This document shows positions 41,442-46,376 of a stretch of 64,000 nucleotides of DNA, piece by piece. A program made the position numbers and the translations under genes. This DNA comes from Occultella glacieicola (GTDB lineage: Bacteria > Actinomycetota > Actinomycetes > Actinomycetales > Beutenbergiaceae): positions 62,001-126,000 of the forward strand of contig NZ_SMNA01000013.1 in NCBI RefSeq assembly GCF_004353825.1, written 5' to 3'. The notes below the pieces were generated by a model that was not told the DNA's origin, made no database searches, and saw only the letters and a program-made list of their open reading frames with translations. The stretch's first letter is position 1. The number at the start of each line of letters is the position of its first letter.

Positions 41442-43039
41442 CAGAACGTCGAACCGAGATCCTGGTGGTCGGGGGTGGGCTCGGCGGCGTCGCCGCGGCC
41501 CTGACCGCGGCCCGCCTGGGCCGGAAGGTGATCCTCACCGAGGAGACCGACTGGCTCGGGGGACAGCTGACCGCCCAGCTCGTGCCACCGGACGAGCACG
41601 CCTGGATCGAGTCCGACCTGGTCTCCCCGACCTACGCCGAGCTGCGGCGCCGGATCCGTGACTACTACCGGCGCAACTACCCGCTGTTGCCCGCCGCCGC
41701 CGAGAACCCGACCCTGAACCCCGGGCTCGGCTGGGTCTCCCGGCTCTGCCACGAGCCCCGCGTCGCGGTCGCCGCGATCGAGGAGATGCTCGCGCCGTGG
41801 CGCGCCTCCGGCGCGATCGAGGTCCTCCTCGAGCATGTCCCGACGGCGGTGCACACGGGCGGCGACGTGATCGACGCGGTGACGCTGAGCGACCGGCGCA
41901 CGGGGGACGAGCTGACCGTCGCCGCGGACTTCGTGGTGGACGCCACCGAGCTGGGTGACCTGCTCGAGCTCGGCGGGGTCGAGCACGTCATCGGAACCGA
42001 GTCGCGGGAGGACACCGGGGAGCTGCACGCTCCGGAACGGGCGGACCCGCTCGACCAGCAGGCCGTCTCCTGGTGCTACGCCCTGGAGCACCGGGAGGGG
42101 GAGGACCACACCATCGACCGGCCCGCGAGCTACCAGCACTGGGCCACGAAGGTGGACGACTTCTGGCCCGGACCGCAGCTGTCCTGGGTGGACGTGGAGC
42201 CGGTGTATCTGGGCAGGCGGGACCGGCCGATCTTCATGTCCGAGCCGACGCCGGGGGTGCCCTTCGACCTGTGGGACTACCGCCGGATCCTCGCCGCCGA
42301 GCAGTTCGACCCGGCCGCGGGCCTGCGCGACGTCTCCGCGGTGAACTGGCCGCAGATCGACTACTGGGAGGCGCCGCTGCTCGGTGTCGACGCCGCCGCG
42401 AAGGAGCGGGCCCTCGCCCGCAGCCGGGAGCTGTCCCTCTCCTTCCTGTACTGGATGCAGACCGACGCACCCCGGGAGGACGGCGGCACCGGCTACCCCG
42501 GGTTGCGGCTGCGGCCGGACGTGGCCGGCACCGCGGACGGGCTGGCCAAGACCGCCTACATCCGCGAGTCACGCCGGATCGCGGCCGAGTTCACCGTGCT
42601 CGAGCAACACGTCGGCGTCGAGGCCCGTGGCGTGGAGGCGGGCTCCGCCGTGTTCGACGACGCCGTGGGGATCGGCCACTACCGGATCGATCTGCATCCC
42701 TCCACGGCCGGCCGCACCTACGTGGACATCGAGTGCTTCCCGTTCCAGATCCCGCTCGGGGCCCTGCTCCCGGTCCGGGTGGACAACCTGCTGCCGGCGT
42801 GCAAGAACATCGGCACCACCCACATCACGAACGGGAGCTACCGCCTGCACCCGGTCGAGTGGTCGATCGGTGAGGCGGTCGGGGCGCTGGTCGCGTTCTG
42901 CCTCGACCGCGGCGTGGTGCCCCGCAAGGTGCGCGCCGACTCCGCCAGCCGCTCCGACTACCAGGAACTGCTGCGCGGTCGGCTCGGGGTGACCACGGCC
43001 TGGCCGGACGAGGTCCGGCGCACCCGACCCGGCCACTGA
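41438..43039 (+). CDS. FAD-dependent oxidoreductase (FAD_oxidored family)
   Basis: VGGGLGG, GGQLT, DATELGD, YIRESRR, IDLH and PFQIPLGAL motifs. Confidence 0.88.
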   Translation: MTERRTEILVVGGGLGGVAAALTAARLGRKVILTEETDWLGGQLTAQLVPPDEHAWIESDLVSPTYAELRRRIRDYYRRNYPLLPAAAENPTLNPGLGWVSRLCHEPRVAVAAIEEMLAPWRASGAIEVLLEHVPTAVHTGGDVIDAVTLSDRRTGDELTVAADFVVDATELGDLLELGGVEHVIGTESREDTGELHAPERADPLDQQAVSWCYALEHREGEDHTIDRPASYQHWATKVDDFWPGPQLSWVDVEPVYLGRRDRPIFMSEPTPGVPFDLWDYRRILAAEQFDPAAGLRDVSAVNWPQIDYWEAPLLGVDAAAKERALARSRELSLSFLYWMQTDAPREDGGTGYPGLRLRPDVAGTADGLAKTAYIRESRRIAAEFTVLEQHVGVEARGVEAGSAVFDDAVGIGHYRIDLHPSTAGRTYVDIECFPFQIPLGALLPVRVDNLLPACKNIGTTHITNGSYRLHPVEWSIGEAVGALVAFCLDRGVVPRKVRADSASRSDYQELLRGRLGVTTAWPDEVRRTRPGH

Positions 43040-43150
43040 CCGCGGCCGGCGCCGTCGGGCGGGCCGGTGCGGCTCGGGGACAGTTGGTCCCCGGTCCCGC
43101 ATGCAGAGACGCCCGACGGCGCCCGCTCGCCGGGTGTGTAGTCTCCCCTT

Positions 43151-43213
43151 ATGCGTTGCGCACCCAGGTATTGGTTTAGCGTGTCGGCCCCGGCCGTCGC
43201 GCTCAGCCTCTGA
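43151..43213 (+). CDS. Putative leader peptide MRCAPRYWFSVSAPAVALSL of the DAHP synthase gene
   Basis: ATG at 43151, 6 nt after TAGTCT (-10, 43139-43144); contiguous TAT-TGG-TTT codons; followed by alternative hairpins before the aroG SD. Confidence 0.7.
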   Translation: MRCAPRYWFSVSAPAVALSL

Positions 43214-43326
43214 CGCGCGCAACCGGAGCCGACACAGGGCGTGGACCAACGGGGTCCGCGCCCTTCGCCATTGAGGCGGGCGCTCCGGGAGCTGGGGTGA
43301 TCCGCCCGGACCCGGAAGGACCAGCC

Positions 43327-44394
43327 GTGGATCTCACCCAGACCGAACGCACCAACGACCTGCGCGTGTTGCGCATGGAGCCGCTGCCGACCCCGAGCGA
43401 GGTGCTCGCCGAGCTGCCGCTGCCGGACGCCTCCGCCGAGCTCGTGGCCCGCTCGCGGGCGCACACCCAGGACATCCTGGCCGGCCGTGACCACCGGCTG
43501 CTCGTGGTGGTCGGCCCGTGCTCGGTGCACGATCCCGTGGCCGGTGTGGAGTACGCGCACCGGCTGTCCGCGCTCGCGGCCGAGCTGAGCGACGACCTGC
43601 ACGTCGTGATGCGCGTCTACTTCGAGAAGCCGCGCACCACCACCGGCTGGAAGGGCCTCATCAACGACCCCGGGCTGGACGGCAGCTACGACATCCCGCG
43701 GGGTCTGCGTCTGGCCCGGACCGTGCTGCTGGACGTGCTGGCCGAGGGCGTGAGCGCCGGGTGCGAGTTCCTCGAGACGACCTCGCCGCAGTACATCGCG
43801 GACACGGTCAGCTACGGAGCGATCGGGGCGCGAACGGTCGAGTCCCAGGTGCACCGGCAACTGGCCTCCGGGCTGTCCATGCCGATCGGGTTCAAGAACT
43901 CCTCCGACGGCGACGTCCAGGTGGCCGCGGACGCGTGCGTGGCCGCGGCCTCGCCACAGACGTTCCTCGGCGTGGATGCCCGCGGCCGGGCCGCGGTCGT
44001 CGACACCGCCGGCAACCCGGACTCCCACGTGATCCTGCGCGGCGGCCGCCGTGGCCCGAACTACGCACCGCCGGCGCTCACCGCCGCGCTGGACGTGCTC
44101 GAGCGGTCCGGCCTGGCCCGCCGCCTGGTCGTGGACGCCAGTCACGGCAACAGCGGCAAGGACCACGTCCGGCAGGCCGAGGTGGCCCGGGAGATCGCCG
44201 AACAGGTCGCCACCGGCGAGCACGGGATCGCCGGGGTGATGCTGGAGAGCTTCCTGGTGGCCGGGCGGCAGGAACCGGCGCCGACGGGACTCACCTACGG
44301 CCAGTCGGTCACGGACGCGTGCCTGTCCTGGGACACGACCGAGTCGGCGATGCGGAACCTGGCCACCGCGGCGGCGCGGCGACGCGCGAACTGA
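43327..44394 (+). CDS. aroG: 3-deoxy-7-phosphoheptulonate (DAHP) synthase, class I-alpha
   Basis: GPCSVHD, RVYFEKPRTT.GWKG, GARTVESQVHR, DASHGNS and YGQSVTDAC motifs; SD GAAGGA before GTG 43327 (isoenzyme name nominal). Confidence 0.93.
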   Translation: MDLTQTERTNDLRVLRMEPLPTPSEVLAELPLPDASAELVARSRAHTQDILAGRDHRLLVVVGPCSVHDPVAGVEYAHRLSALAAELSDDLHVVMRVYFEKPRTTTGWKGLINDPGLDGSYDIPRGLRLARTVLLDVLAEGVSAGCEFLETTSPQYIADTVSYGAIGARTVESQVHRQLASGLSMPIGFKNSSDGDVQVAADACVAAASPQTFLGVDARGRAAVVDTAGNPDSHVILRGGRRGPNYAPPALTAALDVLERSGLARRLVVDASHGNSGKDHVRQAEVAREIAEQVATGEHGIAGVMLESFLVAGRQEPAPTGLTYGQSVTDACLSWDTTESAMRNLATAAARRRAN

Positions 44395-44497
44395 CGTTGC
44401 GCCGTCGGGCGGAGCGACGAGGAGCAGCCGGCGCCCTGGCGCGGTGACCGACCGGACCGGGCTGACGCCGTCGGGCACCACCGGCGACGGCGTCGCC

Positions 44498-44983
44498 TCA
44501 CCGCTCGAAGGCGGGTCCGGCGGACGGGTCGGACCGGAAGGCGAGCGTGTCCGCGATCCGCTGGGCGGTGGTGTCCGCGAGCGGCGCCGGCAGCGCGTCG
44601 GTCGCGAACCAGCCGACCTCGAGCGACTCGTCGTCGCCGACGCGGGCCTCACCGCCCGTGTGCCGGCACCAGAACGTCAGGTCCAGGTACTGCGCCCGGT
44701 CGCCGTTCGGGTAGGTGATCACGTCGCCGGTGCGGACCGCCGTCAGCGCCTCCACCCGTGCGCTCACGCCGGTCTCCTCGGCGACCTCGCGCAGCGCGGC
44801 GCGGGCGGGCTGCTCGCCGGGGTCGAGGATGCCACTGATCACCGCCCAGGCGCCGGTGTCGCTGCGGCGCCCGAGCAGGACCCGGTCGGCGGCGTCGAAC
44901 ACCACCGCGCTCACCCCCGAGAGCCACAGGAGCTCGGTGCCGACGTGCCGGCGCAGGTCCGTCACGAACTCGGGGATCGGCAT
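44498..44983 (-). CDS. NUDIX hydrolase
   Basis: Nudix box GILDPGEQPARAALREVAEETGV. Confidence 0.9.
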   Translation of the reverse strand: MPIPEFVTDLRRHVGTELLWLSGVSAVVFDAADRVLLGRRSDTGAWAVISGILDPGEQPARAALREVAEETGVSARVEALTAVRTGDVITYPNGDRAQYLDLTFWCRHTGGEARVGDDESLEVGWFATDALPAPLADTTAQRIADTLAFRSDPSAGPAFER

Positions 44984-45083
44984 GGCATCGATCCTGCCAC
45001 GGGCGGCGGACGGCCGGTCCCGACGTCGCCGCTACGATGCCGGACGGGCCCCGGCCGGTGGCCCGAACAGATGAGGAGCATCC

Positions 45084-46376
45084 GTGCAGGGTTGGACGTT
45101 GTATCGAGACGGCAGGACGATCAGGCCGGGCGAGGTGGTCGGGCCCGGGCAGCGGCTGTCCTGGCCGCGCACGATCGGCATCGGCGCCCAGCACGTGGTC
45201 GCGATGTTCGGCGCCACGTTCCTGGTGCCGCTGATCACCGGGTTCCCACCCTCGACCACGCTGTTCTTCTCCGCGATCGGGACGTTCGGCTTCCTGCTGA
45301 TCACCGGCAACCGGCTGCCCAGCTACCTCGGGTCCAGCTTCGCGTTCATCGCTCCGATCGGTGCGGTGATGGGCACGCACGGGATGTCGACGGCGTTGGG
45401 TGGCATCCTCGTGGTGGGGGTGCTGCTGGCGCTCGTGGGCGTGGTGGTGCACGTGGCCGGCGCGCGCTGGATCGACCTCGTGATGCCACCGGTCGTGACC
45501 GGCACCATCGTGGCCCTGATCGGCTTCAACCTCGCCCCGGCGGCGTGGGGCAACGTGTCCGAAGCGCCCGTGACCGCCATCGTCACGATCGCGGCGATCG
45601 TGCTGATCACGGTGCTGTTCCGGGGGATCCTGGGGCGGCTCGCGGTCCTGCTCGGGGTGCTCGTGGGGTACGCGGTGGCCGCCTGGCGCGGCGAGGTCGA
45701 CTTCACGAAGGTGGGGGAGGCGGACTGGATCGGGCTGCCGCAGTTCACGACCCCGTCGTTCGACCTCGCGACGCTGGGGCTGTTCATCCCGGTGGTCCTG
45801 GTGCTGATCGCGGAGAACGTCGGGCACGTGAAGTCCGTGGCCGCGATGACCGGTGACAACTACGACGCGATCACCGGCCGGGCGCTGATCGCCGACGGTG
45901 TCGCGACCACCCTGGCCGGGGCCGGCGGCGGGTCCGGCACCACGACCTACGCGGAGAACATCGGCGTGATGGCCGCCACCCGCGTGTACTCGACCGCCGC
46001 CTACGCGACGGCGGCGGCCTTCGCGCTGGTGCTGAGCCTGTCCCCGAAGTTCGGCGAGGTCATCAACACGGTGCCGGCGGGCGTGCTCGGCGGCGCGGCC
46101 ACCGTGCTCTACGGGATGATCGGGGTGCTCGGCGCCCGGATCTGGGTCCAGGCCAAGGTCGACTTCTCCGACCCGGTGAACCTGACCACGGCCGGGATCG
46201 CGCTGATCGTCGGGATCGCGAACTACACCTGGGTGGCCGGCGCCCTCAAGTTCGAGGGCATCGCGCTCGGTACCGCGTCCGCGCTGATCGTCTACCACGC
46301 GATGCGCGCCATCTCCCGGTGGCGGGGGACCGCGGTGGAGCCGGTGGGTGCGGGCACGCCCGTCGACGGCGACTGA
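45084..46376 (+). CDS. Uracil-xanthine permease (NCS2 family)
   Basis: QHVVAMFGAT, YLGSSFAF and TTYAENIGVMAATRVYS motifs. Confidence 0.92.
   Translation: MQGWTLYRDGRTIRPGEVVGPGQRLSWPRTIGIGAQHVVAMFGATFLVPLITGFPPSTTLFFSAIGTFGFLLITGNRLPSYLGSSFAFIAPIGAVMGTHGMSTALGGILVVGVLLALVGVVVHVAGARWIDLVMPPVVTGTIVALIGFNLAPAAWGNVSEAPVTAIVTIAAIVLITVLFRGILGRLAVLLGVLVGYAVAAWRGEVDFTKVGEADWIGLPQFTTPSFDLATLGLFIPVVLVLIAENVGHVKSVAAMTGDNYDAITGRALIADGVATTLAGAGGGSGTTTYAENIGVMAATRVYSTAAYATAAAFALVLSLSPKFGEVINTVPAGVLGGAATVLYGMIGVLGARIWVQAKVDFSDPVNLTTAGIALIVGIANYTWVAGALKFEGIALGTASALIVYHAMRAISRWRGTAVEPVGAGTPVDGD

Follow-up and report, generated by a model that had tools for sequence, protein, structure and literature searches.

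A candidate leaderless leader-peptide switch upstream of the type-I DAHP synthase gene in Occultella glacieicola and other Actinomycetes

A short upstream open reading frame (uORF) with tandem Tyr, Trp and Phe codons precedes the gene for a type-I 3-deoxy-D-arabino-heptulosonate 7-phosphate (DAHP) synthase in Occultella glacieicola, within a 64,000-nucleotide (nt) stretch of contig NZ_SMNA01000013.1 (here called the window; positions are counted from its first letter). Among described systems, the closest is the aroR-aroF leader of Corynebacterium glutamicum, whose aroF we take to encode a type I DAHP synthase; this leader was reportedly also the subject of a study by Neshat and colleagues in J Biotechnol in 2014. 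Passages of Mentz et al. 2013 (PMC4046766) present aroR (cg4017), which lies before aroF (cg1129), as a leaderless ("LL") 78-nt ORF with a Phe-Tyr-Phe run and a 154-nt short transcript (supplement file 5), and they report BLAST matches of its peptide in close Corynebacterium relatives only. A passage of PMC11802643 describes the leader as a transcription attenuator that answers to Phe, not Tyr, with expression going up on Phe limitation, and deletion of aroR in production strains is mentioned in PMC7356990 as raising flux. The original prediction for the window knew of no description of this arrangement for a DAHP synthase; the parts of PMC4046766 and PMC11802643 that deal with aroR-aroF show that it had already been published.

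The window leader is a case of this known leader type, in a broad family outside Rfam. Like aroR-aroF, it is actinobacterial and places a short ORF of leaderless layout, with aromatic codons in tandem, immediately before a DAHP synthase gene, and in both genomes a second DAHP synthase is encoded elsewhere. In O. glacieicola this is a type II enzyme (PF01474, E 9.4e-201; G000 contig C5:110142-111434, minus strand, locus L127), so that the type-I enzyme behind the leader shares the entry step with a second enzyme; the PF01474 control search was also positive in C. glutamicum. The Phe response of aroR fits the position of Phe as the codon nearest arm A, the first pairing segment of the window leader. 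The two differ in that aroR has Phe-Tyr-Phe without Trp and 25 codons, whereas the window has Tyr-Trp-Phe and 20, and in that a 154-nt short transcript is documented for aroR, whereas the window leader has no U-tract. A covariance model of the window family, R1 (see below), matches other Mycobacteriales (Dietzia, Mycolicibacterium and Mycobacterium), which makes homology of aroR to the R1 family plausible but only that, since aroR was compared by description.

Two further kinds of leader offer a comparison. In the classical attenuators (E. coli trpL, pheL and hisL, together with a Bradyrhizobium DAHP synthase leader, L091), as in the window, a short ORF carries codons for the end product, its stop lies between segments 1 and 2, and the ribosome position sets an alternative 1:2 or 2:3 pairing. 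They are unlike the window leader in that their segment 3 is the 5' arm of the terminator, whereas the GC-rich window hairpin P2 has no competitor and lies inside the 2:3 helix, and in that the window ORF is leaderless and is followed by no U-run. The other comparison is with translational attenuation of the ermC type. Mycobacterial polycysteine leaderless small ORFs such as Ms5788A act on the ribosome-binding site (RBS), according to passages of bioRxiv 10.1101/834739. With these systems the window leader shares a very stable fold, and with Ms5788A also a leaderless sensor ORF in an actinobacterium; it may also share the proposed mode of action, in which the stalled ribosome frees the next RBS without terminator control. 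However, different amino acids are sensed, and the window signal would be relayed through intermediate segments, B and E; in Ms5788A the sensor codons pair directly with the Shine-Dalgarno (SD) sequence, a pairing that is unconserved in the present family (median z 0.33; 2 of 54 leaders below -2).

We propose, with a probability of about 0.5 for the reading as a whole, that the leaderless uORF and its switch form a ribosome-stalling sensor of aromatic aminoacyl-tRNAs that raises DAHP synthase and does so at the level of translation. The sensor-plus-switch part, taken by itself, is very probably correct; that the output is translational, by analogy with ermC and the mycobacterial Cys leaders, we would put at even odds. 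DAHP synthase determines how much carbon enters the synthesis of all three aromatic amino acids and is a usual target of strain engineering, and leaders of this kind occur widely among Actinomycetes (Arthrobacter, Microbacterium, Isoptericola, Mycolicibacterium, Dietzia, Micromonospora and others). The analysis provides a rule by which such leaders can be annotated, together with a covariance model and 54 natural variants. In the literature searched, with the supplements of bioRxiv and of most cited papers outside its scope, we found no account of this actinobacterial family, and a term search of Seliverstov 2005 (PMC1262725) and Naville 2010 (PMC2965389) found the aro genes unmentioned.

The putatively leaderless aromatic reading frame and its distribution

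At a single locus, a cluster of aromatic codons is weak evidence, because 22 of the 878 small ORFs of the window also have at least three aromatics within six residues. The combination of uORF and cluster is more than chance because it is conserved in 54 distinct leaders. A protein search placed a DAHP synthase in 19 of 41 related genomes, from which we took 17 full-length loci (L001-L017), leaving out one genome with the gene in three pieces (G016; L018, L020 and L021) and one with a 37%-identity match at E 8.9e-4 (G019; L019). The clustered Tyr/Trp/Phe uORF that the original prediction expected in orthologous leaders is present in all 17 relatives' loci, where it has 18-22 codons and occupies the same position.

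To avoid circularity, only the structured part, which runs from arm A to segment F, went into R1, and the aromatic codons were excluded. In the window's own genome it gave a single match, which is this site; beyond it, R1 matched 17 of 151 genomes of the order (E <= 0.01) and 11 of 151 genomes of the class (E <= 0.05), providing 17 new loci (8 in the order, 9 in the class). Every one of the 17 has an ATG or GTG ORF with an aromatic cluster that starts 24, 27, 30, 36 or 39 nt before the match, an offset that is always a multiple of 3. Fourteen of them precede a type-I DAHP synthase gene and three (L043, L046 and L047) a DAHP_synth_1+CM_2 fusion, in which a partial DAHP_synth_1 domain is joined to chorismate mutase type II. 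The uORFs before the fusion genes (MNRCFAFT..., MGRYSSFT...) have Phe and Tyr and no Trp, which is what one would expect if the codons mirrored the branch of the pathway that is served.

A scan of named genomes covered 79 loci. R1 matched 14 of them at E < 0.01, all on the gene strand, upstream of the gene and in Actinomycetes (five in Arthrobacter, two in Mycobacterium and one each in Microbacterium, Isoptericola, Catellatospora, Micromonospora, Paractinoplanes, Dietzia and Mycolicibacterium). By uORF scan, a leaderless aromatic uORF was found in 21 of the 33 class-Actinomycetes loci of these genomes and none in 11 (Bifidobacterium, Nocardiopsis, Streptosporangiaceae and Gryllotalpicola); the remaining locus, L110, has a longer aromatic ORF without a -10 hexamer and was placed in neither group. 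Identical leader peptides are common to families of the window's order and to Arthrobacter, Microbacterium and Isoptericola, which would fit the Micrococcales that the original prediction had named for comparison. The combined set comprises 54 distinct leaders, 51 before a DAHP synthase gene and 3 before the fusion gene. A TANNNT hexamer ends 6-8 nt before the ATG or GTG of the uORF in all 53 leaders with upstream sequence, a count to be read with the caveat that, where starts were nested, the one having the hexamer was picked.

Of the 51 DAHP synthase leaders, 47 contain Trp, Tyr and Phe together, and 46 have Phe as their last aromatic. The residues are retained although they are arranged and spaced differently (YWF, WYWF, WYAYF, YWRF, WRYF), which points to a constraint on codons rather than on a nucleotide motif. 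Rare codons read by wobble are known to sharpen ribosome stalling in classical leaders. Codon choice in the 54 leaders is the inverse of that in the host genes: TAT outnumbers TAC by 63 to 4 (94% TAT) and TTT outnumbers TTC by 48 to 10 (83% TTT), versus TAT 5 to TAC 261 (2%) and TTT 4 to TTC 341 (1%) in the 54 downstream coding sequences (CDS). In the window's long GC3-rich frames, TAT makes up 15 of 235 and TTT 5 of 327. So extreme a preference for TAT and TTT in genomes that otherwise hardly use either offers a clear natural case of stalling-tuned codon choice.

Several observations lie at the margins of this distribution. The fusion genes (L043:508-1482, minus strand; L046:1653-2882, plus strand; L047:445-1443, minus strand) occur in three large genomes of 8-9 Mb belonging to one family, and in their leaders P2 carries a true U-tract (TTTTTTGTTT, TTTTTCGTT). 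Upstream ORFs of 28-31 codons in three Solirubrobacterales loci (L077, L078 and L087) and in the uncultured Actinomycetes metagenome-assembled genome of L110 end in ...YFYFWRFT, ...PYWRFS, ...SYFWRFS and ...SYWWRFS; they have the YW-R-F motif at the C-terminal end, are apparently not leaderless, and may represent an earlier form of the leader or a variant of it.

Outside the Actinobacteria, aromatic leaders before DAHP synthase genes appear widespread. By eye, uORFs with aromatic runs lie upstream in about 15 of 41 non-actinobacterial DAHP synthase loci (L062, L083, L089, L091, L092, L102, L104, L107, L111, L113, L114, L116, L117, L121 and L122), with examples in Xanthomonas (MNANRSFYFWYYGF...), Bradyrhizobium (MITVATSYFWYFSY...) and Acidovorax (MQVRSAFYFWFYF...). 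The Bradyrhizobium leader (L091, 421-547) is a textbook attenuator, in which the uORF segment CTGGCGGC matches the 3' arm of the terminator (526-547), and the terminator is followed by TTTTGTGTGC. Phe/Tyr uORF candidates beside shikimate-pathway genes were proposed from comparative genomics in the Fig. 6b legend of Stav et al. 2019 (PMC6429828); the idea of aromatic-codon uORFs before shikimate genes is the same, the bacteria are different, and the comparison is by that description only. Table 7 of PMC1173090 lists putative attenuators before aroA(I-alpha)-tyrA in Vibrio, and a passage of PMC2659441 contains a hint of an attenuator at E. coli aroF.

Conserved helices and the predicted A:B versus B:E switch

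The uORF is followed by a set of conserved helices (Table 1). The 190-nt leader folds at -104.3 kcal/mol, versus -87.9 +/- 4.6 for shuffles (z -3.6; 1 of 200 shuffles equals it). RNAalifold on 16 leaders gave P1 (A:B), P2 and P3, with compensatory change in 10 of 25 pairs. Across 43 leaders aligned with the model, 93.0% of the cells were paired, versus 79.3% in shuffles and 39-46% with slid partners, and 19 of 27 pairs had compensatory change on both sides; the alignment was fitted to the model and these figures lean high. On the same alignment P1 is 97.1% paired (3 of 9 pairs compensatory), P2 96.7% (8 of 10) and P3 (C:D) 84.3% (3 of 5).

Two other helices were considered, of which the second was rejected as the mechanism. 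The alternative pairing of D with segment F, a candidate fourth helix of the family, is 92% paired on the fitted alignment, yet has a probability of 0-0.05 in the window folds. A long-range helix between the Tyr-Trp-Phe codons (43164-77) and the SD and start codon (43318-30), seen in the minimum free energy (MFE) fold, is the unconserved pairing whose values were given above for the comparison with Ms5788A (median z 0.33, 2/54 below -2).

Segment E, a copy-like mimic of A, supplies the alternative partner of B. For B, the strongest partner after P2 begins no more than 4 nt from the end of D in 40 of 43 leaders, and B:E comprises 7-10 contiguous pairs with z below -2 in 19 of 43 leaders, below -1 in 34 and above 0 in 1; this test replaces an earlier and looser one, with loosely defined B segments, in which z was below -2 in 13 of 54. 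E covaries with both B and A (CCGGAGC:GCUCCGG versus CAGAGCC:GGCUCUG or GGUUCUG). We computed partition-function folds of the window leader with five 3' ends, free or masked as by a stalled ribosome, 20 state and context folds in all. In free RNA, A:B has a probability of 0.97-1.0 and B:E of 0-0.02. Under a Trp or Phe stall mask, A:B drops to 0-0.15 and B:E reaches 0.73-0.98 in 8 of 10 folds, the remaining two having 0.35 and 0.04, whereas under a Tyr stall mask A:B is still at 0.42-0.60 in 4 of 5 folds. Footprint geometry gives arm A covered by about 2-3 nt for a ribosome waiting at Tyr, 5-6 nt at Trp and 8-9 nt at Phe. The leader may not sense all three amino acids equally: by these folds, Phe and Trp should matter more than Tyr, because a ribosome waiting at Tyr leaves A:B at 0.42-0.60.

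Two marks of a leader-peptide attenuator, a putatively translated 5' short ORF with a start signal and a cluster of codons for the end products of the pathway, are present, and a third, exclusive 1:2 and 2:3 helices with segment 1 within reach of a stalled ribosome, was found in the folds. The core of the original prediction, a leaderless leader peptide with aromatic codons as sensor coupled to alternative helices, has strong comparative support in the 54 leaders, the codon bias and the covariation. Its coordinates (TAGTCT, ATG, uORF, TAT-TGG-TTT, the A and B arms, the 12-bp hairpin, TCCGGG and the SD) agree to the base with ours.

Table 1. Positions of the leader elements and the DAHP synthase gene in the window
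Feature	Position	Strand	Remarks
-10-like hexamer TAGTCT	43139..43144	+	6 nt ahead of the uORF start; leaderless layout; predicted transcription start site 43151
Leader peptide uORF MRCAPRYWFSVSAPAVALSL*	43151..43213	+	20 codons plus TGA (43211-13); ATG at 43151
Sensor codons TAT-TGG-TTT (Tyr-Trp-Phe)	43169..43177	+	Rare U-ending Tyr and Phe codons
Segment A GTGTCGGCcCCGG, 5' arm of helix P1	43181..43193	+	Begins 3 nt past the Phe codon
Small hairpin inside the P1 loop, containing the uORF stop	43196..43220	+	From the MFE fold; weak conservation, helix 2 69% paired
Segment B CCGGaGCCGACAC, 3' arm of P1	43223..43235	+	Complementary to A
B core CCGGAGC	43223-29	+	Pairs with A or, alternatively, E
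P2, GC-rich 12-bp hairpin (43236-47/43253-64)	43236..43264	+	Tail CUUCGCCAUU; present in every modelled state
P3, small hairpin, C (TCGCC, 43265-69) : D (GGCGG, 43275-79)	43265..43279	+	Probability ~0.9 in most window folds
Segment E (GCTCCGG), copy-like mimic of A	43282..43288	+	Partner of B once A is masked
TCCGGG	43284-89	+	
Segment F (CCGCC)	43302..43306	+	Alternative partner of D in the family model; unpopulated in window folds
Segment 4 (CCCGGA, 43311-16), overlapping the SD GGAAGGA (43314-20)	43311..43320	+	Candidate partner of E
Type-I DAHP synthase gene	43327..44394	+	GTG start, placed from SD spacing and orthologue N-termini; 355 codons; PF00793, E 3.7e-80

Candidate regulated steps

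In the mechanism that we propose, transcription would begin at the ATG at 43151. With charged tRNA plentiful, the ribosome would reach the TGA in the P1 loop and leave, A:B would form, and E would stay free. If tRNA-Phe or tRNA-Trp were short (tRNA-Tyr less so), the waiting ribosome would cover arm A, and B would then pair with E, closing a three-way junction over P2 and P3. As long as E (UCCGGG) is free, it would bind the CCCGGA that overlaps the SD, and B:E would release the SD. P2 would be a constitutive leaky terminator or pause and not the regulated element. A broader proposal, which we hold tentatively, is that the leaders may constitute an uncatalogued pan-actinobacterial family in which one leaderless peptide integrates Trp, Tyr and Phe charging through rare codons and a B:E relay over a constitutive terminator-like hairpin acts at the RBS or on mRNA fate, without competition between terminator and antiterminator. 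Such a non-classical layout, in which a relay helix spans a constant hairpin and an antiterminator is lacking, is probably the noteworthy part.

The evidence for an output at the RBS comes from folds and from complementarity. In short 3' contexts only, E:4 has a probability of 0.84-0.95 in the free RNA and of 0.00-0.22 in 3 of 4 Trp/Phe-stall folds, and a Trp or Phe stall makes the SD more accessible when 3-12 nt of CDS are folded, its unpaired probability going from 0.21-0.26 to 0.43-0.68. Of the 54 leaders, folded to +15 nt, 17 gain more than 0.1 in RBS access and 6 lose more than 0.1, and the best downstream partner of E overlaps positions -16 to +3 in 28 of 43 leaders. The pairing of TCCGGG (43284-89) with the SD region, which the original prediction had put forward, was seen in the short-context folds and was lost when longer coding sequence was included.

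This last point opens the list of findings that count against the translational reading. With at least 30 nt of CDS folded, every state has the SD 0.64-0.68 unpaired and the start codon still paired, and in a separate +21 nt fold the SD is at 0.53 versus 0.55. RBS access is flat in 31 of the 54 leaders. Relatives of the same genus show no opening (L002, 0.19 to 0.18; L003, 0.18 to 0.26; L004, 0.57 to 0.43), and for the group of L013, L015 and L016 the helix logic predicts the opposite sign. The E:4 duplex of the window (-11.9 kcal/mol, z -0.4) is no better than its composition would give, and over all leaders E:4 complementarity is likewise about what base composition would produce (median z -0.5, 7 of 43 below -2). 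The conservation itself must be read with restraint, since the 43-leader pair counts, besides leaning high, overstate independence because the sequences are related. Finally, P2 with its U-containing tail is the best-conserved helix and suits the role of a terminator better than that of a spacer. Mimicry of the SD by a B-like GGAGCC at the RBS (seen in L011, L036-38, L043, L046, L047 and L049) was considered as another route and rejected, with p < 0.05 in 3 of 54 leaders only, which likewise does not help a translational output.

The conservation of P2 brings forward the strongest competing explanation, in which the sensor is the same and the regulated step is premature termination or pausing at P2 (43236-64, tail CUUCGCCAUU), lowered by stalling; on balance we regard it as unlikely. 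P2 is GC-rich, has a loop of 4-5 nt and a U-enriched tail, and resembles a terminator. No helix is better conserved (96.7% paired, compensatory change in 8 of 10 pairs). The tail is rich in U when set against a genomic GC content of about 70%, and P2 is homologous to textbook intrinsic terminators in other lineages (Paractinoplanes, Mycolicibacterium and the chorismate mutase fusion loci). The 154-nt short transcript of C. glutamicum aroR (in a supplement of PMC4046766), and the account of that leader as transcription attenuation in a passage of PMC11802643, would also suit termination. Among 43 leaders, the 9-nt P2 tail has 6-8 U in 6, 4-5 in 27 and at most 3 in 10. Against this, 4 of the 9 tail positions in the window are U and the terminator pattern scan does not pick the hairpin up, the tail of one relative (L015) has no U at all, and P2 was flagged as terminator-like in Paractinoplanes (L074), unflagged in the window. 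A consensus pattern scan of the window leader found no sigma-70 promoter and no hairpin followed by a T-run, in line with the original prediction that a U-tract terminator is lacking.

Also against regulated termination is that P2 has no competitor. Its pair probability is 0.97-0.99 in 19 of the 20 window folds. The original prediction had the 3' arm of P2 (43252-58) re-pair with 43307-13, a pairing that is unpopulated in these folds, and had CCTTC (43262-66) pair with the SD region, which we reject since P2 stays formed in 19 of 20. A duplex search of the P2 5' arm against the upstream RNA, with shuffles, gave a median z of -0.23 and 0 of 43 leaders below -2, whereas the same test on the classical Bradyrhizobium DAHP synthase attenuator, used as control, gave -4.1. 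Alignment folding with A masked and the 3' arm blocked left only 3 bp and no P2 antiterminator, and single-sequence folds of the lineages with true U-tracts gave no antiterminator for P2 either. The conclusion that there is none rests on the complementarity test, because MFE folds alone miss a kinetic antiterminator, as the Bradyrhizobium control shows. B:E cannot act on P2, since E lies downstream of the termination point, and E:4 has no U residues after it. The classical terminator/antiterminator design, in which segment 3 is the 5' arm of the terminator, was tested and is not what this leader has. A conserved terminator-like hairpin without an antiterminator thus poses a concrete puzzle about attenuation in high-GC bacteria with poor U-tracts.

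A stalled ribosome stabilizes erm mRNAs. By the same token, the output of the sensor could be the fate of the mRNA, if the parked ribosome, 18-27 nt from the 5' end, or the B:E junction shielded the transcript from 5'-end-dependent RNases or from Rho and left the RBS unchanged. This would suit the placement of the sensor codons within one ribosome footprint of the predicted 5' end, the conservation of the sole AU-containing single-stranded stretch (UUCGCCAUU) and the inconsistency of the RBS effect across the family. We nevertheless consider it improbable: it leaves the covariation of A, B and E as a 1:2 / 2:3 set unexplained, and the G-rich, highly structured leader would probably be a poor Rho loading site.

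Very improbable, finally, is a conserved protein- or ligand-binding RNA or a small functional peptide in which the aromatic codons are incidental and no amino acid is sensed: C-terminal parts of the peptide (SAPA, ALEGP, APGGA) are indeed conserved within groups, but they coincide with helix arm A, so that RNA pairing explains their conservation, and the retention of the aromatics through changes in order and spacing, the codon choice inverted relative to host genes, the lack of Trp in the three leaders before the chorismate-mutase fusion and a permissive cmscan of 42000-45000, which at E up to 10 gave no Rfam family apart from three noise matches (E >= 2.6, scores far below gathering, none a leader family), all speak against it.

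Neighbouring features of the locus

The upstream neighbour is a gene for a FAD-dependent oxidoreductase that ends at 43039. Between its stop and the leader promoter lies a perfect 14-bp inverted repeat, GGCGCCGTCGGGCG / CGCCCGACGGCGCC, at 43048-43061 and 43110-43123, whose arms are separated by 48 nt; between them lies another hairpin, GGGGAC...GTCCCC (43077-43093). In relatives of the same genus, both arms of the 14-bp repeat join into one tight hairpin. As judged from these sequences, the repeat may be a U-less terminator of the upstream gene that has received an insertion in this strain.

On the other side, a 470-codon ORF (44444-45856, plus strand) begins 50 nt past the stop of the DAHP synthase gene and has no Pfam match at E <= 0.001. 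It may be co-transcribed with the DAHP synthase gene and hence be under the same leader.

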